A stretch of 64,000 nucleotides of DNA from Candidatus Latescibacterota bacterium (GTDB lineage Bacteria; Latescibacterota; CBDEFO01), in NCBI GenBank assembly GCA_965248755.1, contig OZ252149.1, forward strand, positions 4,224,001-4,288,000, given 5' to 3'. The notes under the pieces are model-generated. The model was not told where the DNA came from. It saw only the letters and a program-made list of their open reading frames with translations, and ran no database searches. Within the stretch, counting starts at the first letter, position 1; each line of letters begins with the position of its first letter. Shown here in pieces: positions 1,036 through 30,219 of this stretch. Made by a program: the position numbers and the translations under genes.

Positions 1036-1060
1036 ACTACTGCTCCTTGCGAGTCCTTCT

Positions 1061-7418: not shown

Positions 7419-7473
7419 TTAATATCTCCTGTGCCATGATACTGTGCAGCGAAACTCTCCGCCCAGCTTTCCC

Positions 7474-8310: not shown

Positions 8311-8424
8311 GGTTATGCCCTCCGGTTGCAGTAAGATTACTCGCCCAAAAGACACAATTCACCTATACCGCTTCTCGAACAAACGGACAGTGCTCTGCAC
8401 GGTCAGACAGCCCAGTCTGACCCG

Positions 8425-8664: not shown

Positions 8665-8979
8665 ATCGATTCCTTTCAGACTTGAAAATTAGGACAATAA
8701 ATATATATCACACTCACATACGAATTGCCCGGGGTAGAAAATCGTCACCTGTCTACTTTACAGTAGAGATTTTCTCCAGGCATAGAAAGGTTCGCCTTCT
8801 CTCAGGCCATAGATCCATTGAAAAACCCCCGGTATCGTTAGTATTTTGTTGCCGTCTCCACCTTCTCCACGAGGAGCGTGTATGCCTTGGCGTAAAGTCG
8901 GTATGGCAACGCATATCCCCACAGGTCATGCCGGGATATACCTCCACCAACAGAACCGGCTGTTGTGCAGCATACCGGC

Positions 8980-11612: not shown

Positions 11613-11822
11613 GGTGATCTCCTTTTGACATTGACGTCAAGTAAACGTCCCTCAAATACGCTAAGAACGAACCGACTCTTTTACCGAATAATCACGGCTA
11701 CAATTCTATCCGCTTATAGAGTCCCGCTGCATAAAGATGTGCCGCATCATTTAGTCTTTCTATCGTATGCTGGTTCCATTGATTTGTTCTGAGCACGGTG
11801 ATCCCCATCAGTGAAGCATCAA

Positions 11823-11977
11823 CCAACATTCCCCATATCACATTCATGAGGGGTTTTATATCGATACAATCTTATTTGTGAATGAATATTACCACTTTTA
11901 TATTTTTCAACAAGTACTTTTTTCAATCAAAATAGCATTTTCCTCTGAATTATCACTTTCTTTGTGTTTAAATCCTC
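11823..11977 (-). mobile_element. Isolated downstream end fragment of the same IS1380 element
   Basis: Close match to 5793-5947 and to the start of 40478-41748. Confidence 0.85.
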
Positions 11978-12662
11978 GGGGTCGAAGGGGCGTCCACTGA
12001 GACGGTAGTGGTTAAGCGTGATAGGGAACTCCTACATCCCAAATTGTCATGTGCACTTGCAGGCGACCATATGCACTCCGCAAGGCTAAATGCCTCACTA
12101 ATGAGCAGTATGTATAAAGTACAAAAAATCCACCACAATCACAAGACAACTTTTGACCTTTACTTTTCTACCAACTTCTACTAAATTTCTACTGGAACAA
12201 GCCAAAACACCGTGAAACACAAAGAAACACCGTAGAAGGTGAAGGGTTGTTAGCCTAAATAAAATAAAGAGTTAGGTAACAACACGAAACAGCAGGGAAA
12301 ACACTTAACTGACAGTGGGTCAGACAGGAATGTCACTGGAAGGTTTCCTCACCATAGCGTTCACCTCCTGCCGCCTAAGATACTACAGAACTAATAATAG
12401 GGCAATACTTAAGAGGAGTGACTACCTAGCCGCAAACTTTCCCCGCGAATTTTATAGTCAATTGAAGATAGGTGCAGTATAGTCTTCCGTCAAGAATGCA
12501 TCTGTCCTTGTATTACTTAGTTGACACTCCATCACGAATTCCTTATATTACTTCATATCAGTCTCTCGGAACTCTACTTGAAATAATCAGGCAAGGCTGC
12601 AGGCGAGATTCCGTGCCATCCGTGTTACGATCGGTAAGAACACGACTGCTCAAGGCGAAAGA

Positions 12663-13067
12663 ATGTACAGACTCTTCTTAACTTTCTTTGCAATAGTATC
12701 TTTGATCCTTTACACTGGATGCTCTCAGACAAGGCCGATAAAGACGGTCGATTCGATTTTACCGGAAGATATAAAAGAGGGAGAAGAAGCCAAGATTATC
12801 CTCAAGGATCGGACCACAGCCGAGGGCACGATTATCTCTTCAAATGAAGATGAGATAACCCTCAAAATTGTGTATCAAGATTACGAAAAAGGCGGGAAAA
12901 GAGCAAAGTTCATATCTTACAGATGGGATGACATCGAAAGAGTCGAATCCAAGTCACAGGGGGAAAAGACCAGAAGCAGCCTTCGCGTGGCGGCGATAAT
13001 GACCGGTATTGTAATAGGTACCGGTTTTCTGCTTTTGGGACTCATAACAGATGCCCTGTCCAATTGA
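12663..13067 (+). CDS. Hypothetical lipoprotein with a C-terminal TM helix
   Basis: Signal peptide ending YTGC; hydrophobic C-terminus. Confidence 0.6.
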   Translation: MYRLFLTFFAIVSLILYTGCSQTRPIKTVDSILPEDIKEGEEAKIILKDRTTAEGTIISSNEDEITLKIVYQDYEKGGKRAKFISYRWDDIERVESKSQGEKTRSSLRVAAIMTGIVIGTGFLLLGLITDALSN

Positions 13068-13171: not shown

Positions 13172-13792
13172 ATGAAGGTCAACAAAAAGGGAGTGGCTTT
13201 CTTGATTTCGGGGATGTGCAGCCCGTTTATCCTGCTCTTTCTGACCTCAATCCCTATAGTCTATCTGCATACATCTTCCCTCGGTTCCTTTCTGCTGTTC
13301 TTCTTTTTGACTCTTGTCTTTGTAATTATGGTTCCTCTGGTTTCTATTGTTATGCTGTTCGTAAAGGGGAAGATAACGAGCATACACATTATAGACAAAG
13401 GTGAACGCAAGCTCCCCTTTGTAGTGGTGATCTTAAGCGTGTGCCTCGGTCTGGTTTTTTTTTATCTTTTCGATGCTCCGCTGGAGCTTATCGCTTTGGC
13501 TATTACATTTATAGCTAATGGTATTGTTCTGGCGGCGATCACACCCTATTGGAAAGTGAGCCTGCACGTAGCCGCGGCGACGTGCTGTTTTACAGCGGTG
13601 ACCGTGTTCTGCGGATGGAAGATGTCTTTTTCGTTTCTTGCTCTTCCTCTCATATCGTGGGCGAGGATCTCGAGAGGGAGGCACAATCTTGCGCAGTCGC
13701 TGGGAGCAGTTTTGGCCTCACTGGTAGTGACGATTTTGATGTTCTATATATTCCTGCCCGATTATATACACAGGCTGTTGTCTTTCGAGTAG
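13172..13792 (+). CDS. PAP2-like integral membrane protein
   Basis: Multiple TMs; KVSLH and WARISRGRHNLAQ motifs. Confidence 0.6.
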   Translation: MKVNKKGVAFLISGMCSPFILLFLTSIPIVYLHTSSLGSFLLFFFLTLVFVIMVPLVSIVMLFVKGKITSIHIIDKGERKLPFVVVILSVCLGLVFFYLFDAPLELIALAITFIANGIVLAAITPYWKVSLHVAAATCCFTAVTVFCGWKMSFSFLALPLISWARISRGRHNLAQSLGAVLASLVVTILMFYIFLPDYIHRLLSFE

Positions 13793-13820
13793 CAACGAAT
13801 GATATAAGGGGATGATCTGT

Positions 13821-13868
13821 TTGGACGATCTAAAATCGTGGCTGACTCTATTTAACATTAAGGGTGTG
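13821..13868 (+). repeat. Left copy (attL-like) of a 48-bp direct repeat; displaced original 5' end of dprA
   Basis: 44/48 identical to 27317-27364; TTG start with AAGGGG upstream; the stub stops at 13892. Confidence 0.9.
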
Positions 13869-13975
13869 ATAAGACTAATAAATCTGTATTAAAATGTGTA
13901 AATACGGCTCATGCGGTTATGGATCCTGAGCTTTTAGTTCAAACTATCAATGGGGTAAAGAATAGATAAGAAAGA

Positions 13976-15310
13976 GTGTATAGAATGCCAATTCATAGAG
14001 AATCAACCAACATTAGTGGAAAGTTAGTTCCTAATATTTTGATGGTAGGCTCAGGTCATTATACCACTGGTTGGGTTAAAGGACAACAAAACAAATCAGA
14101 TAAGAAGATAGGTGTTATTGCTCCTGTTCTTTTTGATCAAAGAAGATTAGGTAATGTAGGAAATTTATCTATGGTTGGAACGAATGGAACAAGATTCCCT
14201 GAGATAAGATCACATTTAGAAGAACATGTTGCACAGGTCTATAGAGACATGGATACTTCTTTTAGATCATTTCCAAATGATGACGTTAAAAGTAATCCTT
14301 TGGCATATTTGGAAGCTATGGAAACTTTGGATCCCGGGGATGCAGTTATAATTACCACGCCAGATGATACCCACTTCAAAATCGCAAAAGCTGCTATAGA
14401 AAAAGGTCTTCACTTTTTGATTACAAAACCGCCAGTAAAGACACTTAAAGAGCATCTTGAACTAATTAATATTGCAAAACAACATGATGTACTGGGTGCT
14501 GTTGATGTGCATAAAAGATATGATACAGTGTATGCTGATGCAAGACAACAAATAAGGGAACAATTACAAAAACATGAACGTCTTACTTGCCTACAGGCAC
14601 ATATGACCTGTCAAAAAGAACGACTGGATAATGTCCCTTGGGCCGGAAAATCGAGCGATGTTAGTTATTATTTGAATTCACACCATATTGACTGGCATGT
14701 GTGGACTATGGAAGATTTTGCTAGACCCGTTAAGGTTTATGCTACTGCTGCCAAAGGTATTGCAAATAACCCTCCTCATAATTTACCGACAGAAGATATG
14801 ATTATATTAACTGTTGATTGGGAACATTTCTCTGATCCCAAAAATAATGGGATAGCTGTGTACATAGCAGGATGGGTAGATCCAGCAAGTGATGTCTATA
14901 CAGAACAAGGATTTACAATCAATGTACCAGGGTACAAAATAGATGCTGACCAAAGTCGTAGAGGTTACATGACATCAGAAGATGGTCCAGGTATTAAGTC
15001 ACTAAATCCCTTTTATATGAAGTACTCACCTAATGAAGAAGGGTACTTTGATAGTAGAGGTTACGGGTGTTTATGCATTGCAGCTTTTATAGAAGCTATC
15101 GGTCAAATACTAAATAAACAAAAAACTGTAACAGATTATGATAGAACACTCCCCATAATTGCTAGGACAACCCAGATGACAGCAATTTTAGAAGCAGGAA
15201 GAGAAAGTTTAGATGCTGGAGGAGTTCCTGTGTCCATTAAATATGATAAGAAAGATAAATCGCTTCCGGTTGGGCTGACTAAGTACAAATTATTAAGAAC
15301 AAGAATGTAA
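13976..15310 (+). CDS. Gfo/Idh/MocA-family oxidoreductase (D-galacturonate-reductase-like)
   Basis: MVGSGHYTTG, TPDDTH, ITKPP, HKRYD, YLNSHHID; visibly AT-rich. Confidence 0.75.
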   Translation: MYRMPIHRESTNISGKLVPNILMVGSGHYTTGWVKGQQNKSDKKIGVIAPVLFDQRRLGNVGNLSMVGTNGTRFPEIRSHLEEHVAQVYRDMDTSFRSFPNDDVKSNPLAYLEAMETLDPGDAVIITTPDDTHFKIAKAAIEKGLHFLITKPPVKTLKEHLELINIAKQHDVLGAVDVHKRYDTVYADARQQIREQLQKHERLTCLQAHMTCQKERLDNVPWAGKSSDVSYYLNSHHIDWHVWTMEDFARPVKVYATAAKGIANNPPHNLPTEDMIILTVDWEHFSDPKNNGIAVYIAGWVDPASDVYTEQGFTINVPGYKIDADQSRRGYMTSEDGPGIKSLNPFYMKYSPNEEGYFDSRGYGCLCIAAFIEAIGQILNKQKTVTDYDRTLPIIARTTQMTAILEAGRESLDAGGVPVSIKYDKKDKSLPVGLTKYKLLRTRM

Positions 15311-15640
15311 CGAAAGAAAAAATGTGATTTTGCAAGACCTTGATTCATTATAGACAAGAAGAAACTTCGATTGGAGCAAGAAAGAAACTTTAAGTATAGA
15401 CTTGCATTCTTTGCCTCAGTCGTACATTTCCCATACTAACTGATATAGTTGAAAATGAGGCTGACCCCCCCTACTTAGCTGAAGATTTACTCTAAAACTG
15501 GATAAGGATGCAGGAAACTTGTGCTCTCTCATTTTCTGATAACTTTCTCCTTCTCTTAATCCTAAGTCGCCTTACGAGATCTCTGTCAAGTGAACTATTA
15601 GATACGCACGCTGGCTTAATGCACAATAAGATTTGTATCA

Positions 15641-16141
15641 TTGAATAATGTAGATAGGACATTTGCAGACAAGGTAGATTATGCCACTGGAGATACTGCC
15701 AATTGAGTCTTCAGTGCAGATTTAGATAGTGATGGTGATAATGACATGGCAGTGGCTAATGTTGACAGCGGTAGTGTATCAGTGTTTTTGAATCGCTCTG
15801 ATATACCCACTGCTGGTGTCACTGCTGTAATCGAGTATAAAGGACCATTATCAGTTATTCCCGAAGCTTATGCTTTCTCGCAGAACTATCAAAATCCCTG
15901 TATCCCCTCAGACGGTGATCTATCATGATCTTCGTGTTTGAACCACGTTAACTTATCTAGCTTCAACATGGTGGGGCAGGAGGTGGCGACGTTGGTGGAT
16001 GGAGAGACGGATGCGGGCAGGCATTCAGTGGTCTGGGATGCTAAGGATAGCGACGGATAAAGCCTTGCCAGCGGAGTCTATCTGTATCGGATGGAGACAG
16101 ATGGATTTACAATGACAAGGGAACCGATATTAATGAGATAG
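15641..16141 (+). pseudogene. Remnant of an FG-GAP repeat protein with an FlgD/T9SS-like tail
   Basis: TFADKVDY..N*VFSADLDSDGDND; SQNYQNP; LASGVYLYRMET; stop and frameshifts. Confidence 0.75.
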
Positions 16142-16467
16142 ACCTTCTCATCTTAAGTGATGCGACAGAGCCGGAGCTCAGTTTATAAGGGTTTCGGTTT
16201 TTTGTCTAACTGAATCTGCCCGATGAAGTTATTGTTGACATCTGTTTCGTTTTTCCTTATCTTGTGACCCATATCACAGTACGGACGCTAAAGTTTGATT
16301 ATCTTAACTGAGATAATTAAATGTAGGGGCGGGGTTATTCCCCCCTATAGGATTGTAGTGGAACGTAAATTCAATAAGTCATCTTCAGCCCATGGATGAG
16401 GAGGTGATACGATTTATCCGGGCTTAAATAGAGTCGAAGTTTTGTCAGTTGGTCAATGTTTTTCAAT

Positions 16468-16488
16468 CCCCGATAGATTCAATCGGGG
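16468..16488. repeat. 21-bp palindrome, copy 1 (intergenic, just upstream of an RBS)
   Basis: ccccgatagattcaatcgggg. Confidence 0.9.
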
Positions 16489-16512
16489 ATCAATCTCAAG
16501 GAGGTTTTTGCA

Positions 16513-17544
16513 ATGACTGCCAAGATATTCTGCTTGGTCGTTTTGGTCATAGCCATCTGCGCGCTTGCAACGTCTGCCACTGCCAAAATTTGGCGGGTTG
16601 ATAACAATCCTGGTAACGCGGCGGACTGGAGGACCATACAAGCGGCTCACGACGGCTCAGCAAGCGGCGATACGCTCTATGTTTCGGGTACTGCAATTAG
16701 CTATGGTAATTTGTTTGCTTCAAAGAAACTGTTTGTCTTCGGACCCGGTTATCTCCTGGGTGAAAATCCCAAAACCCAGGCAAATCTAGCCTCTGCCAAA
16801 ACTGACGCTATTAGATTCGACTCGGGTTCGGATAGTTCACTCGTCACAGGTTTAGATGTACAGGGTACATTAGAAGTTAATATTGGTGTGAGCAGCGTTA
16901 CTATCAAGAGAAATAGAATAGTCCACAGCTTTAGTCCGTGTGTCTGGATAGATGACAATACCACCAATATATTCGTTATACAGAATTACATACAAATGAC
17001 TAGTAATTCTTCTGGCACCGACGCAATCCGAGTAGATCCTGGTGTCAGCTCTACTTTCATCAATAATAATTTCATAGAGGCTGGCGTCACAACTACCGAC
17101 GCAATCGACGCAAGTACCACCTCATCTATCACCGTTGAGCAAAATGTTATCCGCGGAGATGTGATAGTATATAATACGGGTTTTAACAATAACGTATGGA
17201 GAGAGGGGACTTTTACCGGTACGAATAATGCCGTATTCAATAACATCACAAATAGTACACAGTTTGCAAGCTTTGATACAACCAACGCTAATCAATCCAG
17301 CGTAGATATGGCGACTGTTTTTGTGGGAACCGGCAGCACCGATGGCCAATGGCAATTGACAACAGGTTCTCCTGCAATCGGTGCGGGCTTAGGTGGTAAT
17401 GATATTGGAATGTTCGGTGGACTTGATCCTTATATCCTTTCCGGGATGCCTGCTATTCCTGCCATTTACTTTTTCAGCGCCCCTGTATCGGGTTCAAACA
17501 CCAGCGGCCTTCCGGTTCAAGTGAAAGTCAAATCGCATAACTGA
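16513..17544 (+). CDS. Secreted right-handed beta-helix (pectin-lyase-like fold) protein
   Basis: Signal peptide; TIQAAHD..SGDTLYV; Asn-rich ladder; SPAIGAG; AAGGAGG RBS. Confidence 0.7.
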   Translation: MTAKIFCLVVLVIAICALATSATAKIWRVDNNPGNAADWRTIQAAHDGSASGDTLYVSGTAISYGNLFASKKLFVFGPGYLLGENPKTQANLASAKTDAIRFDSGSDSSLVTGLDVQGTLEVNIGVSSVTIKRNRIVHSFSPCVWIDDNTTNIFVIQNYIQMTSNSSGTDAIRVDPGVSSTFINNNFIEAGVTTTDAIDASTTSSITVEQNVIRGDVIVYNTGFNNNVWREGTFTGTNNAVFNNITNSTQFASFDTTNANQSSVDMATVFVGTGSTDGQWQLTTGSPAIGAGLGGNDIGMFGGLDPYILSGMPAIPAIYFFSAPVSGSNTSGLPVQVKVKSHN

Positions 17545-17663
17545 TAATCGACACAAACAGTAGGCAGCATATTTTTGTTGGGGCGAGGTTCTCTCGGCTA
17601 ATGGTTGGGTAGCCCAGCCTTTACACGATAGGTGATACGGAGAAGAGAAGGTGCCCTGCCTAC

Positions 17664-17711
17664 GAGATTGCTTCCCCCCGATAGATTCAATCGGGGGTCG
17701 CTCGCAATGAC
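17664..17711. repeat. REP-like GAGATTGCTTC...TCGCAATGAC element containing palindrome copy 2 (17676-17696)
   Basis: An uninterrupted version of the same repeat is at 63733-63760. Confidence 0.8.
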
Positions 17712-17938
17712 ACGGTGTACTTTTGCCTTCGATCATTGAGAGGGGTGGAACCTCGACTCCGTCAGGAGTTACGACCCCGAGGAGACGCGAAGCGGAAGCA
17801 GAACCAAGCTCAAAGACTTTTTTCTAATGAAAAGTAATCAGTAGGGGCGAGCCCATGTGTTCACCCAGTGGGTAGGGGACACATCCTTCTCCCTATTTGC
17901 TAACAGAACAGACTCCTCCCCATAACAGGAGTATAGAG

Positions 17939-20900
17939 ATGAGTAGAGTGCAGTATGCACTCAGCGCGGTAATTCTTGCCATTTTGCTTGGTCCACAGGC
18001 GCTGTACGCACAAAACATTGTGCGGGTGGAGTACTACATCGACTCAGACCCCGGATTTGGGAATGCAACTCAGCTGGGCATTACGCCTGCCCCCGAACTG
18101 GATCTAAACTTCAATGCAAATCTTTCAGGCATAAGCGCAGGCTTGCATACTCTGTATGTTCGAGCCAAGGACGATAGTAGTAAATGGAGTTTGTCCTATA
18201 CCAAGCCCTTCTGGACTCTGGCGCTCGATGTTGCTCCAAACATTACGAAAGTGGAATATTACATAGACACAGATCCGGCCTTTGAAGCGGGCGTGGATGT
18301 GCCGATTACGCCGGGAAGTGACGTTACGCAGGATTTCACAGTTGACTTGAGTGGTCAAAGTACAGGCTTGCACGTGCTATATATTCGAGCCAAGGATCAA
18401 GGTGGCAACTGGAGTTTATCCTACGCAAAGCCCTTTATAACAGTTGCGTTGACTGTTACGCCTGATATTACGCAGGTAGAATATTACGTAGACACAGATC
18501 CTGGTTTTGGAGCGGGTGTGGATGTGCCGATTACGCCGGGAAGTGAAGTTACGCAGGATTTCACAGTTGACTTGAGCAGTCAAAGCGAAGGACTTCACGT
18601 TTTGTATGTTCGAGCCAAGGATCAAGGTGGCAATTGGAGTTTGTCCTATGCTAAGCCCTTCATAACACTTGCTTTGACTGTTGCGCCTGATATTGCGCAG
18701 GTAGAATATTACATAGACACAGACCCAGGATATGGAGCGGGCGTGGATGTGCCGATTACGCCGGGAAGTGACGTTACGCAGGATTTCACAGTTGACTTGA
18801 GTGGTCAAAGCGAAGGACTTCACGTTTTGTATGTTCGAGCCAAGGATCAAGGTGGCAATTGGAGTTTGTCCTATGCAAAGCCCTTCATAACAGTTGCTTT
18901 GACTGTTGTGTCTGATATTACGCAGGTAGAATATTACATCGACACAGATCCAGGCTTTGGAGCGGGTGTGGATGTGCCGATTACACCGGGAAGTGACATC
19001 ACACAGACTTTCACAGTTGACTTGACTGGTCAAAGCGAAGGACTTCACGTTTTGTATGTTCGAGCCAAGGATCAAGGTGGCAGTTGGAGTTTGTCCTACG
19101 CCAAGCCCTTCATAACGGTCTCTCTCGCAGTTGCTTCAAACATCATGAAGGCAGAATATTACATAGACACAGACCCCGGCCTTGGAAACGGCGTAGAAAT
19201 GCCTATTACTACACTGGGGACTGACATTACGCAGGATTTCACAGTTGACTTGAGCGGTCAGAGCGGAGGACTTCACGTTTTGTATGTTCGAGCGCAGGAT
19301 GAAAGCGGCGATTGGAGTTTGTCCCTGGCAAAGAGCTTTACTGTCATTGTGGATGTTTCGCCTGAAGTTGTACAGATGGAATATTATATCGACACAGACC
19401 CTGGCTTTGGAGCAGGTGTGGACGTGCCTATTTCTACACCTGGAAATGACGTCACGCGGGGTTTCATAGTAGACTTAAGCAGTCAAAGCGAAGGACTTCA
19501 TGTTCTATATGTTCGAGCCAAGGACCAAGGTGGTAACTGGAGCTTATCTCATGCCAAGCCATTTACAAAGGTGACTTTAGCTGTGGCGTCTGATATTGTT
19601 CAGATGGAGTATTATATTGACACAGACCCTGGCTTTGGAGCAGGTGTGAATGTTTCTATTGGTACACCGGGTGTTGACATTACACAAAGTCTCACAGTCG
19701 ACCTGAGTGTTCAAAGCGATGGACTCCACGTTCTATATATTCGAGCTAAGGATCAGAATGGCAGTTGGAGTTTGTCCCATGCCAAGCCATTTACGAAGGT
19801 GACTTTAGCAGTTGCTTCTGATATTGTTCAGATGGAGTATTATATTGACACAGACCCTGGATTTGGAGCAGGTGTGAATGTGCCTATTGCTTCACCGGGT
19901 GTTGACATTACACAGAGTCTCACAGTCGACCTGAGTGTTCAAAGCGATGGACTCCACGTTCTATATATTCGGGCCAAGGATCAAAATGGGAATTGGAGTT
20001 TATCATATGCTAAACCATTTACAAAGGTGACTTTAGCTGTGGCGTCTGATATTGTTCAGATGGAGTATTATATTGACACAGACCCTGGCTTTGGAGCAGG
20101 TGTGAATGTTTCTATTGGTACACCGGGTGTTGACATTACACAAAGTCTCACAGTCGACCTGAGTGTTCAAAGCGATGGACTCCACGTTCTATATATTCGA
20201 GCTAAGGATCAGAATGGCAGTTGGAGTTTGTCCCATGCCAAGCCATTTACGAAGGTGACTTTAGCAGTTGCTTCAGATATTGTTAAGATGGAGTATTACA
20301 TAGACACAGACCCTGGGTTTGGAGCAGGTGTGAATGTTTCTATTGTAACTCCGGGTGTTGATATTACACAAAGTCTCACAGTCGACTTGAGCGGTCAAAG
20401 TGATGGGCTTCATGTCCTGTATGTTCGAGCTAAGGATCAAAATGGGAATTGGAGTTTATCTTATGCTAAGCCTTTTACGAAGGTGACTTTAGCTGTGGCA
20501 TCTGATATTGTTCAGATGGAGTATTACATAGACACAGACCCTGGATTTGGAGCAGGTGTGAATGTGCCTATTGCTTCACCGGGTGTTGACATTACACAGA
20601 GTCTCACAGTCGACCTGAGTGTTCAAAGCGATGGACTCCACGTTCTATATATTCGGGCCAAGGATCAAAATGGGAATTGGAGTTTATCATATGCTAAACC
20701 ATTTACAAAGGTGACTTTAGCTGTGGCGTCTGATATTGTTCAGATGGAGTATTATATTGACACAGACCCTGGCTTTGGAGCAGGTGTGAATGTTTCTATT
20801 GGTACACCGGGTGTTGACATTACACAAAGTCTCACAGTCGACCTGAGTGTTCAAAGCGATGGACTCCACGTTCTATATATTCGAGCTAAGGATCAGAATG

Positions 20901-23900
20901 GCAGTTGGAGTTTGTCCCATGCCAAGCCATTTACGAAGGTGACTTTAGCAGTTGCTTCTGATATTGTTCAGATGGAGTATTACATAGACACAGACCCTGG
21001 ATTTGGAGCAGGTGTGAATGTTTCTATTGTAACTCCGGGTGTTGATATTACACAAAGTCTCACAGTCGACTTGAGCGGTCAAAGCGATGGTCTCCACGTT
21101 CTATATATTCGAGCTAAGGATCAAAATGGGAATTGGAGTTTATCGTATGCTAAGCCTTTTACGAAGGTGACTTTAGCTGTGGCGTCTGATATTGTTCAGA
21201 TGGAGTATTACATAGACACAGACCCTGGCTTTGGAGCAGGTGTGAATGTGCCTATCGCTACACCGGGTGTTGACATTACACAGAGTGTCACAGTAGACTT
21301 GAGTGTTCAAAGCGATGGGCTTCATGTCCTGTATGTTCGGGCTAAGGATCAGAATGGCAGTTGGAGTTTGTCATATGCTAAGCCATTTACGAAGGTGACT
21401 TTAGCTGTGGCGTCTGATATTGTTCAGATGGAGTATTACATAGACACAGACCCCGGGTTTGGAGCAGGTGTAAATGTTCCTATTGTTACACCGGGTGTTG
21501 ACATTACACAGAGTCTCACAGTTGACTTGAGCGGTCAGAGTGATGGGCTTCATGTCCTGTATGTTCGGGCTAAGGATCAGAATGGCAGTTGGAGTTTGTC
21601 ATATGCTAAGCCATTTACGAAGGTGACTTTAGCTGTGGCGTCTGATATTGTTCAGATGGAGTATTACATAGACACAGACCCCGGGTTTGGAGCAGGTGTG
21701 GATGTTTCTATTGCTACACCGGGTGTTGACGTTGAGCAAAGTTTTGTGGTTGACCTGGGTGTTCAGAGCGATGGTCTGCACGTTCTATATGTTCGGGCTA
21801 AGGATCAGAATGGCAGTTGGAGTTTGTCATATGCTAAGCCATTTACGAAGGTGACTTTAGCTGTGGCGTCTGATATTGTTCAGATGGAGTATTACATAGA
21901 CACAGACCCTGGGTTTGGAGCAGCTGTGGATGTGGCTATTGCTACACCGGGTGTTGACATTACACAAAGTCTCACAGTCGACCTGAGCGGTCAGAGCGAT
22001 GGACTCCACGTTCTATATATTCGAGCTAAGGATCAGAATGGCAGTTGGAGTTTATCATATGCCAAGCCATTTACGAAGGTGACTTTAGCAGTTGCTTCTG
22101 ATATTGTTCAGATGGAGTATTACATAGACACAGACCCTGGGTTTGGAGCAGGTGTGGAGGTTACTATTGTTACACCGGGTGTTGACATTACACAGAGTCT
22201 CACAGTTGACTTGAGCGGTCAAGGAGATGGTCTGCACGTTCTATATATTCGGGCCAAGGATCAAAATGGGAATTGGAGTTTATCATATGCTAAGCCATTT
22301 ACGAAGGTGCGTCGTGAAATAGCCCCAAATATCACTGCTGTTGAATACTATTTCATTAAGGATGGGACAAAGACCCAGGTCAGTACTTACACGAATTTCA
22401 CATCCACAACAGATGTTGGGGCCAATTTCGTAGCGGATATATCAGCCTTGGATAATAATAGTTCCTACAATTGGCATATCTACGGCATAGCTGAGGACGA
22501 CAGAAGGAGTTTGGAGTACGTTCACTCATTTACGGTCGGAAACGCCCCTCCGGTTGCCGTGGACGATACCGTAACCACGCCTGAGGACACGTCGATTGTC
22601 ATCGCTGTGCTTTCCAACGATTTTGACGTGGCTGGAGACACGCTCAAAGTGCAATCGGTTGACACGACCGGCACTGTAGGAAGGGTCGTCGTCGATCCCG
22701 GTGATACTACACTAACGTATGCGCCGAAGGCCGACTTCAACGGTATAGATACGTTCGAGTACGTGGTAACAGATGGTGTAGTGACTGACACAGCCACGGT
22801 CACGGTTACAGTGGAACCGGTGAACGACGCGCCGGGGGACTTTGTCCGGCTTTTGCCCGCTGATAGTAGCCTCGTCCAGCGCGATTCTGTCCTTTTCCTC
22901 TGGACAGCAGCGTCCGATGCGGACAGGGATACGGTGGAATATACGATAAGTATCTCTTTCGCTCAGATCGATACTAGCTTTGTCGTGGAAGACACGACGT
23001 TAGTGGTCGATTTCCGAACGTTTGAGCTGCCCAAGGCCCAGCTTCCTGTGACGTGGTTGGTAGTCGCCTCAGATGGCATCGTGACCTCTGGGCCGACCAA
23101 TGGAAACGGGAACTTTACTTTGAACACGCCACTTCTGTTCGGCGATGTATCGGGCAACGGCGAGATCACCTCCTTCGATGCGGTGTTGATCTTGCAGCAT
23201 ACGGTGGGGCTGATCACACTGACGGATCCCTTTGCCCGCGTTGCAGATGTCTCCGACAACGGCAGAATCAGCGCCTTTGACGCCGCTTTAGTGCTGCGCT
23301 TTGTCGTGGGTGGTATCTCGTGCTTGCCGGCTGACCCAGACTGTGGAGTATTAGCTAAGGGTAAAGCCGTTGCAGGCACACTTGCCTGGTCAGAGACTCA
23401 GTCAGGAGATGTGCCCGGGCACGTCGATCTACCGATCATGTGGAACAGTGAGATGGGAGATGTGATCTCCGCAGAGTTCACCGTGCAGATCGACACGAGT
23501 TTTGCAAAGTTAGTAGATGTGGTTTCAAACCTTCCGGGGGACTGGCAGATGGTGTATAGTTTCTCCAGCGGTGAGCTAAAAGTGGCGATGGCTGGTCTCA
23601 CACGTATATCTGACGCACGCTTAGCTACGCTCCGGTTGCTGATGAGCCAACGGGAGACAGAGGTGACGATTCGCGGTGTAGGGTCGGTCAACGAGGAGCA
23701 GGAGCAGGAGTTGGGAGCTGCAAGGGTCCGGTATGTGCCGAAGGAATACGCGCTGGAGCAGAACTATCCCAATCCATTCAATCCCCAGACTGTGATCCGT
23801 TACGATCTTCCTGTCCGAAGCCAAGTTACCTTATCTGTCTTTAACATAGTGGGACAGAAAGTTGCCACACTGCTGAATGAGGAGATGGATGGAGGCAGTT

Positions 23901-24019
23901 ACTCTATCGTCTGGGACGGTAAAGATCATAGTGGAAGGAGCCTTGCCAGCGGAGTCTATCTGTATCGGTTGGAGACAGATGGGTTTGTTCAGACAAAAAA
24001 GCTGGTGTTGATGAGATAG
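17939..24019 (+). CDS. Giant secreted protein: 19 tandem Ig-like repeats, a cadherin/Big_9-like domain, a dockerin, and an FlgD/T9SS-like C-terminal domain
   Basis: ATG 17939 with AGGAG; signal peptide; EYYIDTDPG repeats; PVAVDD; GDVSGNGEITSFDA/DVSDNGRISAFDA; QNYPNPFNP. Confidence 0.85.
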   Translation: MSRVQYALSAVILAILLGPQALYAQNIVRVEYYIDSDPGFGNATQLGITPAPELDLNFNANLSGISAGLHTLYVRAKDDSSKWSLSYTKPFWTLALDVAPNITKVEYYIDTDPAFEAGVDVPITPGSDVTQDFTVDLSGQSTGLHVLYIRAKDQGGNWSLSYAKPFITVALTVTPDITQVEYYVDTDPGFGAGVDVPITPGSEVTQDFTVDLSSQSEGLHVLYVRAKDQGGNWSLSYAKPFITLALTVAPDIAQVEYYIDTDPGYGAGVDVPITPGSDVTQDFTVDLSGQSEGLHVLYVRAKDQGGNWSLSYAKPFITVALTVVSDITQVEYYIDTDPGFGAGVDVPITPGSDITQTFTVDLTGQSEGLHVLYVRAKDQGGSWSLSYAKPFITVSLAVASNIMKAEYYIDTDPGLGNGVEMPITTLGTDITQDFTVDLSGQSGGLHVLYVRAQDESGDWSLSLAKSFTVIVDVSPEVVQMEYYIDTDPGFGAGVDVPISTPGNDVTRGFIVDLSSQSEGLHVLYVRAKDQGGNWSLSHAKPFTKVTLAVASDIVQMEYYIDTDPGFGAGVNVSIGTPGVDITQSLTVDLSVQSDGLHVLYIRAKDQNGSWSLSHAKPFTKVTLAVASDIVQMEYYIDTDPGFGAGVNVPIASPGVDITQSLTVDLSVQSDGLHVLYIRAKDQNGNWSLSYAKPFTKVTLAVASDIVQMEYYIDTDPGFGAGVNVSIGTPGVDITQSLTVDLSVQSDGLHVLYIRAKDQNGSWSLSHAKPFTKVTLAVASDIVKMEYYIDTDPGFGAGVNVSIVTPGVDITQSLTVDLSGQSDGLHVLYVRAKDQNGNWSLSYAKPFTKVTLAVASDIVQMEYYIDTDPGFGAGVNVPIASPGVDITQSLTVDLSVQSDGLHVLYIRAKDQNGNWSLSYAKPFTKVTLAVASDIVQMEYYIDTDPGFGAGVNVSIGTPGVDITQSLTVDLSVQSDGLHVLYIRAKDQNGSWSLSHAKPFTKVTLAVASDIVQMEYYIDTDPGFGAGVNVSIVTPGVDITQSLTVDLSGQSDGLHVLYIRAKDQNGNWSLSYAKPFTKVTLAVASDIVQMEYYIDTDPGFGAGVNVPIATPGVDITQSVTVDLSVQSDGLHVLYVRAKDQNGSWSLSYAKPFTKVTLAVASDIVQMEYYIDTDPGFGAGVNVPIVTPGVDITQSLTVDLSGQSDGLHVLYVRAKDQNGSWSLSYAKPFTKVTLAVASDIVQMEYYIDTDPGFGAGVDVSIATPGVDVEQSFVVDLGVQSDGLHVLYVRAKDQNGSWSLSYAKPFTKVTLAVASDIVQMEYYIDTDPGFGAAVDVAIATPGVDITQSLTVDLSGQSDGLHVLYIRAKDQNGSWSLSYAKPFTKVTLAVASDIVQMEYYIDTDPGFGAGVEVTIVTPGVDITQSLTVDLSGQGDGLHVLYIRAKDQNGNWSLSYAKPFTKVRREIAPNITAVEYYFIKDGTKTQVSTYTNFTSTTDVGANFVADISALDNNSSYNWHIYGIAEDDRRSLEYVHSFTVGNAPPVAVDDTVTTPEDTSIVIAVLSNDFDVAGDTLKVQSVDTTGTVGRVVVDPGDTTLTYAPKADFNGIDTFEYVVTDGVVTDTATVTVTVEPVNDAPGDFVRLLPADSSLVQRDSVLFLWTAASDADRDTVEYTISISFAQIDTSFVVEDTTLVVDFRTFELPKAQLPVTWLVVASDGIVTSGPTNGNGNFTLNTPLLFGDVSGNGEITSFDAVLILQHTVGLITLTDPFARVADVSDNGRISAFDAALVLRFVVGGISCLPADPDCGVLAKGKAVAGTLAWSETQSGDVPGHVDLPIMWNSEMGDVISAEFTVQIDTSFAKLVDVVSNLPGDWQMVYSFSSGELKVAMAGLTRISDARLATLRLLMSQRETEVTIRGVGSVNEEQEQELGAARVRYVPKEYALEQNYPNPFNPQTVIRYDLPVRSQVTLSVFNIVGQKVATLLNEEMDGGSYSIVWDGKDHSGRSLASGVYLYRLETDGFVQTKKLVLMR
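18017..22330 (+). repeat. Coding tandem array: 6 x 225 bp plus 13 x 228 bp
   Basis: Counted from the translation; lengths sum to 4314 bp. Confidence 0.9.
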
Positions 24020-24197
24020 GATCCGTTCAAAAGAGATAATATCTTGTAGCTAAGGTAGACTATCCGCGGAGATAGGAGGCGATGCACAAATATCTTGATT
24101 TTCGGGTCAGTTTGGGGTATATTGTTACCTAAATTAGATCGTCACCTGATAGATAATCGTGTTTTTTCCATTTGCATCATAGTCAAGGAGATAGATT

Positions 24198-26022
24198 ATG
24201 TATGGATGGACAGGAAAGATTCTGCGCGTTGAGCTTACGCGCGGCACGTGGCAGGTTGAGGATGTGCCGAAAGCGTGGATGCGCGATTTTGTCGGCGGAC
24301 GCGGGCTGGCGGCCAAGTACCTATACGAGGAGATGGACCCTATGGTGGGCTTTAAGCCCCGAGAATAAGTTGATTCTGGCTACGGATCCCCTTACCGGCA
24401 CGCCCGTCTCCTGCGGTGCGCGCTATATGGTTGTGACCAAGGGGCCTTTGACAGGGGCTATTACCACATCCAACTCCGGCGGACACTGGGGACCGGAGCT
24501 CAAGTTCGCAGGTTATGATATGGTCATCGTAGAGGGGAAGGCACAAAAGCCGTCCTACATCTTCATCTACAACGACCGCGTGGAAATACGCGATGCCAAG
24601 AACGTATGGGGCAAGACGGTCTCTGAGACTGAAGACCTTATCCGTGCGGAATTGGGCGTTCCGGGAACGCGTGTGACGGGCATAGGCCCTGCAGGAGAAA
24701 ATCTCGTTCGGTTCGCCTGCATTATCAACGACAAGCACCGTGCGGCAGGGCGCTCCGGAGTGGGCGCCGCTATGGGTTCCAAGAACCTGAAGGCTATCGC
24801 CGTGCGGGGCACAAAAGCTGTCAGGGTCGCGCGCCCTGAGGATTTTATACGCTCTATGTGGGACTTTGCCCAAAAGCTCGCGAAAAGCCAGGAGCGAGCA
24901 GGGTTGACAGAATTAGGCACAGCTCCGACTATCGATCTTGTGAACGCCTTCGGCGGCCTTCCGACGCGCAACTTTCAGGAGGGACAGTTCGATCAGGCGG
25001 ACAACCTCAATGGCAACAGCATCAAAGACCAGCGGCTTGTAACCAATAAAGCCTGTTTTGCCTGCAATATCGCCTGCGGGCGAGTGACGCAGTTGGGGGA
25101 CGGATCCGGCAAGTTCCTGGTCAACACTCACCCGCGCAACTGGGACGTAGCCGGCGAAGGCCCCGAATACGAGACGGTCTGGGCGCTCGGCGCAGATACG
25201 GGCGTGGGTGACCTGAACGCGGTGATCAAGGCTAACTTCCTTTGCAACGATCTGGGCATGGACCCCATCTCGATGGGTGCGACACTTGCCGCGGCGATGG
25301 AACTCTACGAGAAGGGCTTCATCGATGACTCGATGGTTGAAATTCCCCTGGAGTTCGGAAGCGGCGACGCCCTGGTGCGTATGACAGAGGCGACGGGCTA
25401 CCGAGAGGGCTTCGGAGACAAACTTTCCCAGGGCAGCAAGCTCATGACCGAAAAATTCAAGCATCCCGAATTATTTATGGGCGTCAAGGGCCAGGAATTT
25501 CCGGCTTATGACCCGCGGGGCTTCCAGGGCATGGGAGTCGCCTATGCCACCTGCAACCGTGGCGCATGCCACATTCGAGCCTGGACCCCCGCTGTAGAGG
25601 CGTTAGGGGATATGGACCCGCATACGACCGAGGGCAAATCCAAATGGGTAGTAGATGAGAAAGATAGGACGACGGTGCACGATGCTACGGGTATCTGTCT
25701 CTTCATCACAGCGGGCGCTTCGCTTGAGGACCTCCTGCCCTGCCTTATAGGAGCCACAGGGATAGACTACACCTGGGATGACTTCGTCAAAGCCGGCGAG
25801 CGCATCTGGAACATCGAGCGACTTTGGAACCTCAAGGCGGGGCTGACTTCCAAGGACGACACCCTGCCCAAGCGTCTGATGACCGAGGCGCACAAATCGG
25901 GACCGTCGGAGGGCGTCACCGTCAAATTGGACCGGATGTTGCCCGAGTACTATGAAGAGCGATGCTGGACGCCCGACGGAGTGCCGAGGGAGGAGAAACT
26001 TGTGGAACTGGGACTCCTGTAA
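24198..26022 (+). pseudogene. aor: Tungsten-type aldehyde:ferredoxin oxidoreductase, frameshifted near 24348
   Basis: MYGWTGKILRV...GGRGLAAKYL in one frame; LSPENKL...GRSGVGAAMGSKNLKA, CFACNIAC, GPEYET in another. Confidence 0.85.
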
Positions 26023-26205
26023 GACGAACAGAAAAGCTACGGTGTTCCGTCTTCGTATCCTGTGCGACTGTCAAAGAGATGGTCGCCCAGTTTCCTATGC
26101 TCCACCATTATCCTCGCACTACAGGGTCGTTGCAGTTTGATACATACTTGCCAAGTAGTCTTGAAATGCGAGGGACAATGTTACACATTTCCCTGGTGCT
26201 GTTGT

Positions 26206-26226
26206 CCCCGATTGAATCTATCGGGG
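26206..26226. repeat. 21-bp palindrome, copy 3 (at the truncation point of the IS3-like remnant)
   Basis: ccccgattgaatctatcgggg. Confidence 0.9.
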
Positions 26227-26506
26227 ATCAACCTCCTGCTCCTTCGGATCCTTGCGACCACGCCGAGACTTCAGGCTCTCCTGGCCTCCTTCTAAGAAAC
26301 TATCACGCCAAGCATATGCCTGCTACTGGCTGATTCCATTCTTCCGACATACTTCCGATACATCCACTCCTTTCAAAAGAGTCAGCACCACCTCTGCCTT
26401 TCGGGTCGCCGTCCAGCGCTTACTATCTTTCACTTCGGGGCTTGACACTTTGACCTCCTTTCCCAGATAGTATCACTCGGGGACAAGCCTCAAACCCCAA
26501 TTTACA
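26227..26506 (-). mobile_element. IS3-like left-end remnant with a broken OrfA (HTH)
   Basis: 5'-TGTAAATTGGGG end at 26506; AAGGAGG then GTG 26448: SSPEVKDSKRWTATRKAEVVLTLLKG..VSEVCRKNGISQ*QAYAWRDSFLEGG. Confidence 0.65.
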
Positions 26507-26994
26507 AAATATTTGTCGCTCTGTCAAGGGGAGCGGTATGCCGCAGCGTCTTCTACTGTAAGAAAATACGATGCCGATGGCAGTAAAAAGACGACTTTCG
26601 GCAGAGTTTCGGCACCTTCGCCAAAAACAAGAGGATCAAAATGAAGTCCCACTTCGCGATCGAAGGCAACAGCGTCCTCATTCATGCCCCTAACTTTTGC
26701 TTCGGTACACCTATGAGCAAATTGGAAGTATTGTTTAACTTCCTCAGTTCTTGGCATGTATTAGAAAGTTTTCCTGGGCAGATGTCAAAAAGCTGACTAC
26801 AAAAGTTATGATCCATCGGAGGATGACACTGTTTGTTTAGGTTGGAAGACCGGTTAAGTTCTTTGGGTGAGACACATGGGAAAGGATTGATTCTTGTAAG
26901 AAAAAGAAGACTTTTCCTTGTTATCTGCTCAAAGATTTAGTATATTAATACATATCACCTATGAGCGGGGTAGAAATGTCTGAGGAGGATTTAA

Positions 26995-27270
26995 GTGAAA
27001 AAGTTTATTGTATTCGCTCTTAGTGGACCTGAAACGCTACCGGCCTCATTTACTATTCATGAAGAGCAGTTAATTCTACTTGCTGAAGAAGAAAAGAAAA
27101 CAGTCGAATCCGTTGATCTTCCTACAGTTCAGAAACTTATGGGAGACAAGATCATCGAGATGACATTACACTATGCCCATCTTACCCCAGATCATCTAAA
27201 AGATTCTATCAATAAACTGAATCTTGGTGGACACTATTTGGAGGCCGAGCAAAAACTGGAGGGCAGGTAG
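26995..27270 (+). pseudogene. Tyrosine recombinase (integrase) C-terminal remnant fused to unrelated sequence
   Basis: VDLPTVQKLMGDKIIEMTLHYAHLTPDHL matches the box II consensus DLxTVQxLLGHxxIxMTxxYAH, with His changed to Asp. Confidence 0.75.
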
Positions 27271-27316
27271 AAACAGGATACTATTACGTATACTGTTGAT
27301 AAACCACAACATACAG

Positions 27317-28414
27317 ATGGATGATCTAAAATCGTGGCTAACCCTATTTAACATTAAGGGTGTGGGACCGAACCGCTTTCGGGCTCTTGTAGGGAAGTTC
27401 GGATCTCCCGCGGCGGCTCTTGAGGCGAGCACTTCTGATCTGATGTCCGTGCCTACTATAGACGAAAAGATATCAGCCGCTATAAAGGGGTACAAAAACG
27501 AGGTGGAGATAGAAAGACAGATGGCGGCTATAGAAAAAAAGGGAGTTCGTTCTATCACGTGTTTCGATACAGATTATCCCGAGTTGCTGAAGAACATATA
27601 CGATCCTCCACCTATGCTGTTTGTGAAGGGAACTATAAAGCAGGAGGATTCCTCGGCAGTGGCTGTGGTAGGTACGCGCAACCCTAAGCGCTACGGGAAG
27701 ATGATGGCTGAAAAGCTGTCCAGGGAGCTAGCTGATGGGGGAATTACCGTAGTAAGCGGGCTTGCACGGGGAATAGACTCACTAGCGCACAAGGGTGCGC
27801 TGTCAAGAGGAGGACGGACAATAGGCGTGTTGGGTTGCGGCGTTGATGTGGTCTATCCCCCTGAACATAAGAAACTCTTTGAGGCCGTTATCGCTAATGG
27901 TGCCCTCATCTCCGAGTTTCCGATGGGGACAAGACCGGAAGCACCGAACTTCCCCCGCAGAAACAGAGTCATAAGCGGCATGAGTTTAGGTGTTGTGATA
28001 GTTCAGGCGCCGGCCAAAAGTGGAGCTCTTTTGACGGCTCGATACGCTCTGGATCAAAACAGGGAGGTATTTTCCGTACCAGGGAACGTGGACGATATGC
28101 AGAGCCGCGGGACAAATGGCCTCATTAAACAGGGGGCAAAGTTAGTAGAAGATGTAGAGGATATACTTGAGGAGATAAAGAGCTCCCTAAGGATGCCCAT
28201 AGAACCGAAGCCGCCTGTGCCTGATGACGTTGAGGAATTGGAACCTAATGAAAGGTCGGTGCTCCAGGCTCTGACGGACGAGCCAAAGCATATAGACGCC
28301 ATATGCAATCAGACTAGATTAGAACCATCTATTACCTTGGCTGCACTCTTATCATTAGAACTTTCGGGACTGGTAAGACAGCTTTCGGGGAAGATGTTTT
28401 TAAGACAAGTATAG
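27317..28414 (+). CDS. dprA: DNA-processing protein DprA
   Basis: YPELLKNIYDPP, AVVGTR, VSGLARGID, FPRRNRVISG, SGALLTA, C-terminal winged helix; start set at ATG 27317. Confidence 0.95.
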   Translation: MDDLKSWLTLFNIKGVGPNRFRALVGKFGSPAAALEASTSDLMSVPTIDEKISAAIKGYKNEVEIERQMAAIEKKGVRSITCFDTDYPELLKNIYDPPPMLFVKGTIKQEDSSAVAVVGTRNPKRYGKMMAEKLSRELADGGITVVSGLARGIDSLAHKGALSRGGRTIGVLGCGVDVVYPPEHKKLFEAVIANGALISEFPMGTRPEAPNFPRRNRVISGMSLGVVIVQAPAKSGALLTARYALDQNREVFSVPGNVDDMQSRGTNGLIKQGAKLVEDVEDILEEIKSSLRMPIEPKPPVPDDVEELEPNERSVLQALTDEPKHIDAICNQTRLEPSITLAALLSLELSGLVRQLSGKMFLRQV

Positions 28415-28431
28415 AAAGGAGAGCATACGGG

Positions 28432-28542
28432 ATGACTAAGACGCCGAGAAAATTGAGGATAAAAAAGAGAGCAAAGCAAAACGCCGCCGACAGGAGGGCT
28501 ACAAGAAAGGCAAGCAGAAAAAAGGTCAAAAGACAGTTGTGA
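28432..28542 (+). CDS. 36-aa highly basic small protein (below the ORF-track cutoff)
   Basis: AAAGGAG upstream; MTKTPRKLRIKKRAKQNAADRRATRKASRKKVKRQL. Confidence 0.5.
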   Translation: MTKTPRKLRIKKRAKQNAADRRATRKASRKKVKRQL

Positions 28543-28589
28543 TTCCAAAGCCCTGCCGAAGTTGGCAACGCTCTCCTTTCTCTTCGGGC

Positions 28590-29123
28590 TTATTTCCACT
28601 TTATAGTGCAGCCAACAGCCTCCGTCTCAGTTACCGCAACTTCTGCTCCTGAAAGGACAGCGTCGATGGCGTTTCTGAGATCCGGGGATTTGATGCTGTC
28701 GGGGTCCTCCCAGTTGTCGTCAATTCTGCCTTGATAGCGCAGTGTGCGTTGGGAATCGAACAGGAACATCTCAGGAGTCCTCTCAGCTCCGTAGGCGGAG
28801 GCGGCACTCTGAGCTTCGTCTCTCAAATATGGAAAGTTGAAGCCCCTTTCCTCTGCCCGTATAACCATATTGTCGAAACCGTCTTCCGGGTGGTTCATAT
28901 CCTCGTTGGGGTTGATAGCTACAAGAGCCACACCATTGTCCTGGTAGTCTTTCTGTATGGCAATAATTCTCTCTTCGTATGCCTGCGCATAGGGACAGTG
29001 GTTGCAAGTGAATACCACGATTAACACTTCTTTATCCTTGAAATCGTCCATACTGTGATTCACCCCGTCCACACCGGGAAGATCAAAAGGCGGTGCTTTG
29101 TCGCCTATCTTCAGATCTGCCAT
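28590..29123 (-). CDS. AhpC/TSA thioredoxin-family protein
   Basis: FTCNHCPY, YGAERTPE, YQGRIDD, GCTIKWK. Confidence 0.9.
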   Translation of the reverse strand: MADLKIGDKAPPFDLPGVDGVNHSMDDFKDKEVLIVVFTCNHCPYAQAYEERIIAIQKDYQDNGVALVAINPNEDMNHPEDGFDNMVIRAEERGFNFPYLRDEAQSAASAYGAERTPEMFLFDSQRTLRYQGRIDDNWEDPDSIKSPDLRNAIDAVLSGAEVAVTETEAVGCTIKWK

Positions 29124-29205
29124 GCTATTTTCCTTCCTTTATATGATTAAGCTCTGCTCGTGGCATCACTTAGGAAGAATCAGTATTAATGCTTCCGTTG
29201 CGATT

Positions 29206-30054
29206 TCATCTTAGTAGAACCATCTTTCTTGTGGCGGTAAAGTCCCCCGCTTTCAAGATGTAGAAATAGACTCCGCTCGCCACGCTCCTGCCCTCTTCAT
29301 CCAGACCGTTCCACACTAAAGAATAGCTTCCTGCGTCTGCCTGACCCTCCATAAGCTTCCTTACTGCCTGTCCGTTGATGTTGTAAATGACAAGCTTTGC
29401 CCTTGAGTCTTCGGGCACATCGTAAGCTATGGTGGTCTCGGGGTTGAAGGGATTGGGATAGTTCTGGGAGAGAGAATAGACGGTCGGTATATCCTGTGTG
29501 TCTTTGAAGCCTGACCGGGTCCGTCTGACGACGATCTGAACTGGATCCAGGGATTCTATCAGGTCAATGTCGTCTTTAGCGATCCCTTTAAGCTCTATTC
29601 TGGCGAGAGTGAAAGTGACCTCAGATCCTACGGGAAGTTCACCTGAAGGTATAAATGAGATTACCCCCAGAAGTCCCTCTCCAGAGGGAGCTGTCCTATG
29701 GTCGGGCTTCACAATGGCGTTGGCTACGATGACCCTGTTCTCCCTTTGCGTCTTCAAAGAGATGGGTGTTGCACCTCCCCTGGAGGATAGTATGTTGCGC
29801 TTCCCTTCACAAGATGCCAGCGTGGAAGGCTCGTTCCAGGAGAAAAGCTCGCTGTCATATAGGAGGTCTATGCGGTAAGCAGTCAGGTCAGATACGCCTT
29901 CTGCATAGACAGCCACATCTACAGTCTGCTGATTGGACTTATACAGATCGAGTCTCAGTGAGGCTGCGCTGTTTGTGCCTGCCATTGGCTCCGATATAGG
30001 CATCAGAGCGACAGTCAGAAGGATAGCTCCAATAACGATGACTCTGGATATCAT
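29206..30054 (-). CDS. Secreted protein with a cohesin-like domain and an FlgD/T9SS-like tail
   Basis: Signal peptide; DLLYDSELF, SGEGLLGVISF; QNYPNPFNP...KMVLLR. Confidence 0.65.
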   Translation of the reverse strand: MISRVIVIGAILLTVALMPISEPMAGTNSAASLRLDLYKSNQQTVDVAVYAEGVSDLTAYRIDLLYDSELFSWNEPSTLASCEGKRNILSSRGGATPISLKTQRENRVIVANAIVKPDHRTAPSGEGLLGVISFIPSGELPVGSEVTFTLARIELKGIAKDDIDLIESLDPVQIVVRRTRSGFKDTQDIPTVYSLSQNYPNPFNPETTIAYDVPEDSRAKLVIYNINGQAVRKLMEGQADAGSYSLVWNGLDEEGRSVASGVYFYILKAGDFTATRKMVLLR

Positions 30055-30219
30055 GATTTCCTCCTCCATTTAGGGTTGAATTGAGATTATGCTCGATCTT
30101 TGTGAGTATGTTTACTGATTATGTTTACAGTTCTTATGCGTACAATATACAATATAATCGCTCAAAAGCCAAATCTTTTTTTTCATCAGAGAATATTTAG
30201 TCAATATACAACCGTAAAG

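Follow-up and report, generated by a model that had tools for sequence, protein, structure and literature searches.

A doubled dprA start in a Latescibacterota genome as the probable att-site pair of a retargeted, now immobile integrase lineage

Our analysis concerns a 64,000-nucleotide stretch of Candidatus Latescibacterota bacterium (GenBank assembly GCA_965248755.1, contig OZ252149.1, positions 4,224,001 to 4,288,000 of the forward strand), which we call the window, and in particular an island that lies between two copies of the start of the dprA gene. The two copies are probably the attachment (att) sites of an integrase-made insertion, left by a member of a tRNA-targeting integrase clade that was retargeted to dprA and is now grounded. 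The locus looks like a one-off relic rather than a switch of DNA uptake. The island is also found, at 89–96% identity, in G001, a genome of the same genus and the only other genome of the family that was searched. The features that matter most are the following.

13806..13811, plus strand: Shine-Dalgarno (SD)-like AAGGGG, 9 nucleotides ahead of the original TTG start; ACGGGG in G001.
13821..13868, plus strand: putative left att site, the displaced original first 16 codons of dprA; the frame is open to a stop at 13890-13892.
27103..27270, plus strand: C-terminal remnant of a tyrosine integrase, about 46 conserved codons and a tail; about 320 other codons are lost.
27229..27246, plus strand: arm-type direct-repeat pair GGACAC-N5-GGACAC, perfect in G001 and with two changes here; its role is assigned from its place in relatives.
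27289..27301, plus strand: weak stretch resembling an integration host factor (IHF) site, judged by the IHF consensus; same register as in a sister element at tRNA-Thr.
27317..27364, plus strand: putative right att site, an element-borne replacement of dprA codons 1-16; the crossover probably lies within 27348-27361.
27317..28414, plus strand: restored full-length dprA, 365 amino acids.

The 48-mers at 13821-13868 and 27317-27364 start 13,496 bp apart and agree at 44 of 48 nucleotides. They differ at repeat positions 1, 6, 24 and 27 (TTG/ATG, GAC/GAT, CTG/CTA and ACT/ACC), and their final 21 nucleotides are without difference, just as the initial annotation had described. The whole 4.54-Mb genome holds these two copies and no other, even if 12 mismatches are allowed (chance expectation about 2e-15), which rules out a dispersed multi-copy repeat. 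A protein-level search with the first 25 residues of DprA likewise gave matches at just the two copy sites (E <0.3). An assembly artefact is ruled out as well: G001 has the same structure with differences of its own, and contigs of runs X3 and X7 span the right junction. That the repeat is unique in the genome and coincides exactly with the dprA 5' end supports our reading.

The left copy has the AAGGGG run 9 nucleotides ahead of its TTG, and its frame stops after 23 codons. Before the ATG of the right copy no SD-like run was seen, and this copy begins a complete DprA (PF02481, E 1e-80; TIGR00732 above cut-off) behind the integrase tail. Sequence and profile matches agree here with what had first been noted: the open reading frame (ORF) is rebuilt, its upstream signals are exchanged for element DNA and the host start is stranded on the left. 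The arrangement supports taking the copies as the two ends of an integrase-made insertion, with the displaced host start on the left and the element-borne start on the right. An intact target plus a displaced end fragment in the same orientation, the 5' fragment lying upstream, is also the signature used by Islander and TIGER. Islander's tDNA rule asks in addition for a tRNA or tmRNA gene as target; here the target is dprA. No tRNA remnant was seen at the right junction, and no tRNA in the window.

The only tyrosine integrase within the interval is the C-terminal remnant, which stays under the Pfam cut-off (PF00589 model positions 143-170, E 0.022) and matches a PHROG integrase at E 3.5e-7. 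The GGACAC pair overlaps its last 46 or so conserved codons, upstream of the right copy. When species-representative genomes were scanned for this arm motif, at least 120 loci were found; "GGACAC-arm integrase clade" is our own working label. In 36 of the 120 loci listed, an integrase tail lies on the motif. A same-strand tRNA follows in 29 of them and an opposite-strand tRNA in 3; 2 end too soon and 2 have neither, one of which is the dprA locus of G001. Hence 32 of the 36 adjoin a tRNA, and 29 restore its 5' half. The arm pair lies 84–88 or 100–108 bp from the start of the anticodon loop at 37 of the 38 listed same-strand tRNA loci. At 30 of the 78 remaining listed loci, a second arm pair in the same orientation is preceded by a displaced 5' fragment of a tRNA. 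These fragments mostly end at tRNA positions 38–45 and start 157–171 bp ahead of that pair; they are the counterpart of the left dprA copy. Because of the offsets and the displaced fragments, we take the clade to cross over at anticodon loops and usually to restore the 5' half. The dprA locus has the same layout, with an arm pair that overlaps the integrase 3' end and candidate crossovers at offsets 101–108 (84–108 in the clade). Integrase homologues from a separate search, mostly located downstream of tRNA-Ser, tRNA-Leu or tmRNA, do not form the nearest clade, and in viral contigs neither the arm motif nor the core had a match.

One could also argue that no integrase made the repeat: short-homology recombination during transformation would have patched in foreign DNA, and the integrase tail would be a bystander. 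The genome is indeed rich in integrase scars (12 near-matches to the arm motif, 15 integrase-domain matches), and the cargo is host-like, with paralogues elsewhere. But a bystander would not be expected to keep tail, arm pair and gene start in the register of tRNA-targeting relatives, and a native dprA from a donor would have brought its SD along, whereas the right copy has none. We find this account very hard to credit. As to the near-matches themselves, several share upstream sequence and one lies behind a tRNA-Thr fragment. An orphan, perfect arm-site pair also occurs in the window at 10535-10552 on the minus strand; as the left arm pair of the island it is ruled out, being on the opposite strand and outside the island.

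The nearest sister element is a broken integrase beside tRNA-Thr, present in this genome and in G001. The dprA end and the sister are equal at 42 of 60 nucleotides before the arm pair, where the best of 116 other listed arm loci reaches 24. The match ends at the same position in both, and both have a 70-bp spacer, which runs from the arm pair to the ATG at dprA and to the tRNA in the sister. The sister restores the 3' half of its tRNA; hence, the orientation of restoration is not fixed in the clade. We infer a crossover in dprA codons 11–15, where a placement at nucleotides 32–38, our first reading, and one at 38–45 fit equally.

Comparison with G001 separates old differences between the copies from recent ones. 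An alignment of all four copies shows two variants confined to this genome, CTA in the right copy and ACT in the left, and one confined to G001, TTG-AAC in the left copy. The most parsimonious reconstruction has ancestral copies that agreed throughout nucleotides 7–48, and host and element differed in codons 1–2 only. Hence, on this reconstruction, the block is a captured copy that has since drifted, not a recoded one. The "recoded" replacement of the initial annotation thus holds in part only: two of the four mismatches arose after the insertion in this genome. The insertion is common to both genomes and old, predating their split. The G001 island has an extra 1.3-kb insertion and is without about 1.2 kb at 15310-16490.

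We propose the following history. A tyrosine integrase would have inserted its element site-specifically in dprA codons 11–15, in an ancestor that this genome shares with G001. Its clade would normally cross over in tRNA anticodon loops and carry the displaced tRNA half in attP. An attP may gain a new target block through imprecise excision from a secondary site. The lineage may thus have exchanged its tRNA block for the first 48 bp or so of dprA, at the same distance from the arm sites, and a dprA-adapted attP of this kind would have circulated. Integration would then have stranded the host SD, the TTG and 16 codons at the left end. At the right end the gene would have been rebuilt with element DNA ahead of it, starting at an ATG that lacks an SD. 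Later the element would have lost its left arm pair and the greater part of its integrase, and host-type genes would have accrued, so that the island would have become fixed.

Alternatively, a tRNA-type element could have inserted off target and broken dprA, and later local copying could have restored the first codons, without any dprA-adapted element in circulation. Only a single event is known, the nearest sister is still at tRNA-Thr, and a block ancestrally identical over nucleotides 7–48, with codons 1–2 alone different from the host, is what such copying might leave. Two clade members in another genome, G002, also end at non-tRNA DNA. Nevertheless, we regard this course of events as unlikely. 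It needs a clean removal of the tRNA half and a new ATG at the sister's 70-bp offset, where there is no tRNA remnant, and targets are usually restored by a replacement block in attP, at least in the part of PMC10111431 consulted. The two G002 loci, L068 and L080, are integrases of the same arm clade that end at DNA without a tRNA or Rfam match, and from them the clade may have further non-tRNA targets.

To see whether dprA is hit repeatedly, we screened 112 dprA loci, 98 from the phylum (on long contigs, out of 146 matching genomes) and 14 taken from a metagenome scan and a genome scan; 96 have at least 10 kb upstream. A short repeat of the dprA 5' region occurs at 12 of the 112. Eleven of these repeats measure 14–23 bp, and G001 alone has a 42-bp copy of the start. 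G001 is also the only locus that combines a start copy with an integrase within 3 kb upstream of dprA. A targeted scan for the arm motif with Gly-Ile/Val-Gly codons at the right distance, which is blind to elements with other arm sequences, returned 8 matches, and dprA in G001 only. That the dprA-specific element initially suggested forms a family is not supported: there is no second independent case in the 112 dprA loci, the 120 listed arm loci or the targeted scan. That a lineage of the tRNA-anticodon type was retargeted to the dprA 5' end, spread as a family that leaves the protein intact and lowered transformation, without abolishing it, through its SD-less signals, with our locus as a fossil of it, we consider improbable.

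Several results weigh against the retargeting that we propose. No empty site was found in 40 relatives. Homologues of the PAP2-like host gene that ends just before the left copy occur in 13 of 41 genomes and, by coordinates, lie beside the dprA start only in this genome (G000) and G001. The only same-family genome carries the insertion too, so that PAP2–dprA adjacency in relatives is without an unoccupied close genome to compare, and the original adjacency of the two genes is something we infer. At 46 of the 112 loci obgE is directly ahead of dprA; here it is 1.9 Mb away. A metagenome scan gave 5 distant loci, none an empty site, and a genome scan gave 12, the one close locus being G001. We compared contigs (contigs only) from 4 of 14 listed runs over the region 24020-30100. 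Both of the listed run contigs that span the right junction show an occupied site, and among the run contigs listed for this region no loose end at the junction was seen; contigs drop rare variants. No intact dprA-linked integrase turned up in sets of 17, 79 and 80 loci screened for dprA, in the 112 dprA loci or among the loci listed by the arm scans. Five loci of the three sets have an integrase-domain gene about 2 kb downstream of the dprA match, which we presume to be host xerC. On the left side, the arm pair expected near 13978-13992 has no match at up to 4 mismatches, and the DNA past the left copy is no closer to the sister ends than shuffles are (p 0.3–0.9). The 70-bp spacers of dprA and sister are equal at 30 of 70 nucleotides, which is the top of the background. 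Finally, there are imperfect, at most suggestive 7-7-7 dyads in the dprA block at offsets 101 and 107–108 from the arm pair, but 5/7 dyads occur at 13 of 1,074 dprA positions, hence the dyads cannot fix the crossover.

The rebuilt dprA has been kept by selection. Relative to G001, and thus after the insertion, it shows 8 nonsynonymous differences at 833 sites and 16 synonymous differences at 262 sites (ratio of nonsynonymous to synonymous divergence, dN/dS, 0.15; Fisher p 9e-6). Because of this purifying selection, the gene is probably expressed. Its likely old promoter at 12521-12549 (11 of 12) is now 14.8 kb away from it. A 9-of-12 match at 26918-26946 is a candidate new promoter, and a candidate weak site ends 4 nucleotides ahead of the ATG in G001 (p 0.07 against shuffles; 0.115 here). 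When the clade was tested for element-borne promoters, 6 of the 38 tRNA spacers scored better than shuffles at p<=0.05, with a median of 0.4. A leaderless dprA message from the spacer site would be a guess. A second dprA paralogue lies at G000:C1:4443372-4444250. It is shorter, 39% identical, without a match to the winged-helix part, also present in G001, and seems to start with TTG.

Could the locus be a live, dprA-specific switch, which tunes natural transformation by swapping promoter and ribosome-binding site and is reversible by excision? The upstream signals are exchanged, comEC and comM are intact in both genomes, and competence genes are known targets of mobile elements in the portion of PMC12378983 used here. 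An intact integrase with a related arm motif is also found beside tRNA-Arg (C1:1235889-1236983) and could act in trans. Set against this are the element's own integrase, of which 46 codons are left in both genomes (about 320 of about 365 lost), the missing left arm pair, and a left copy that has mutated in each lineage. Nor did contigs from the four runs, with the same loss of rare variants, show an empty junction; dprA is under purifying selection and recurrence is absent. We judge a live switch highly unlikely and find no support for a live dprA-specific regulator of transformation. Because the integrase is mostly deleted and the left arm pair is missing, the island appears to be fixed and no longer mobile. 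Excision in trans by the tRNA-Arg-linked integrase is unlikely without left arms. The prediction that excision would restore dprA behind the PAP2-like gene lacks support on the same two points, the 46-codon remnant and the missing arms.

Elements at icd replace the 3' end of their target. In elements that restore a protein-coding target, attP has a replacement block that keeps the target working (in the part of PMC10111431 consulted), and the dprA island would have done the same. Here, in contrast, the 5' end is replaced, and promoter and ribosome-binding site are rewired as a consequence. Restoration of the target by an attP block is given as a rule in the consulted parts of PMC10111431 and PMC12884075. 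For 5' ends, the excerpt of the Islander paper at hand counts 159 of 3,919 islands with a 5' fragment of a tRNA gene (PMC4383910). Islands at anticodon-centred (A) sites resemble ours in that the restored gene adjoins the integrase, a displaced 5' fragment lies at the far end and the spacing from arm to crossover is alike. Ours differs in having a protein-coding target, a remnant in place of the integrase and no left arm pair.

Elements that disrupt competence genes offer a second comparison, since there too a transformation gene is the target. They are described for comM, comK, comYC, comGA, comFA, comEC, ssbB and radC (parts of PMC12378983 and PMC4774983), and Table 2 of a 2025 review names comYC, comC, comGA, pilB, pilQ, comFA, comEC, comM, ssbB and comK, a table in which dprA is absent (PMC12378983). 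Such elements break up their target gene, and several are found repeatedly in different strains or genera, whereas the dprA island rebuilds its gene and is seen once. The dprA ORF is full-length, so the gene inactivation typical of comM and comK is absent, and the 1 of 112 dprA loci and 1 of 8 targeted-scan matches with an insertion reflect the same shared event. In the literature on dprA and competence targets and on tRNA sites, TIGER target data not covered, we found no report of dprA as an integration target. Three possible precedents fell away, as far as the consulted parts of these papers go: on the mecD island dprA is cargo, not target (PMC5341023), PMC2440964 names dprA in a figure legend only, and in PMC12637031 a prophage raises dprA transcription with no insertion in dprA.

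The mechanism is thus a known one, and the new points are dprA as a target and the matched sister element. With the tRNA-Thr sister and the dprA copy in one genome, at the same 70-bp arm spacing and with the target block exchanged, the locus would offer a snapshot of an integrase changing its target. With it, dprA would also join the transformation genes that site-specific elements target, as a case of restoration and not of disruption. The weight of the case is modest unless intact relatives appear: the event is a single one and immobile, its genus is uncultured, and nothing points to a loss of function.

The remaining features are the host genes on the left and the cargo of the island.

12521..12549, plus strand: sigma-70-like promoter (11 of 12 consensus; consensus match only), which would have served the host genes preceding dprA before the insertion.
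12663..13067, plus strand: host gene, 134 amino acids, no family over cut-off; also in G001.
13172..13792, plus strand: host gene for a PAP2-like membrane protein, ending 28 bp upstream of the left copy.
13976..15310, plus strand: cargo oxidoreductase of the Gfo/Idh/MocA type; its start is the expected place of the left arm pair (about 13978-13992), and the pair is absent.
15650..16141 (approximate), plus strand: broken repeat-protein fragments with a FlgD-Ig-type tail, from a many-copy family; not at this place in G001.
16513..17544, plus strand: cargo, a probably secreted protein of 343 amino acids; three genomic paralogues at 56–62% identity.
17897..24019, plus strand: cargo, a surface protein of about 2,040 amino acids with tandem repeats of 75–76 amino acids and Ig-like, dockerin and FlgD-Ig/sorting domains; a paralogue at 67%.
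24172..26022, plus strand: cargo aldehyde ferredoxin oxidoreductase; a paralogue elsewhere at 63%.
26229..26540, minus strand: short repeat derived from an insertion sequence (IS); 79 genome matches of more than 250 bp.

The label "PAP2-like" holds in part: the top Atlas matches are PAP2-superfamily clusters at 0.96, and there is no Pfam match at E 0.1. The cargo consists of an oxidoreductase, two surface or secreted proteins, an aldehyde ferredoxin oxidoreductase and the IS-derived repeat, and three of the proteins have genomic paralogues. Against G001, both enzymes are under purifying selection (dN/dS 0.23 for the Gfo/Idh/MocA oxidoreductase, 0.10 for the aldehyde ferredoxin oxidoreductase). 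No virion, replication or transfer genes were seen among the cargo, and PHROG matches were 0 of 3 cargo proteins scanned, with the 2,040-amino-acid protein left out.

Some smaller observations concern the cargo. The aldehyde ferredoxin oxidoreductase seems frameshifted near its start (24172-24400): its Pfam match sets in at model position 47, and a short indel distinguishes the contigs of two runs. Either a true lesion or a fault of the assembly could be behind this. The 2,040-amino-acid protein has about 19 tandem repeats of 225–228 bp at 18013-22390, and their number or order differs in G001. A 21-bp palindrome-like repeat occurs at 16468-16488, 17676-17696 and 26206-26226, with 293 matches in the genome (both strands, up to 1 mismatch), and one copy adjoins the IS-derived repeat.

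A second integration junction lies outside the island. A core of about 18 bp, at 12150-12330 and near G000:C1 3,934,150, stands at both ends of an interval of about 302 kb, which begins with a 396-amino-acid tyrosine integrase frame and whose flanks are joined directly in G001. The arm region at 12151-12315 has several copies in G001, where the genes of window positions 1-12300 are scattered. Stacked islands or a rearrangement may account for the interval. On the minus strand, at about 12300-12375, a tiny ORF, which has AGGAGGTG as a strong ribosome-binding site and reaches a TGA after 11 codons, has the 18-bp core at its end. The corresponding G001 frame runs 7 codons beyond the TGA. The genome that holds the window has a tRNA-Sec.

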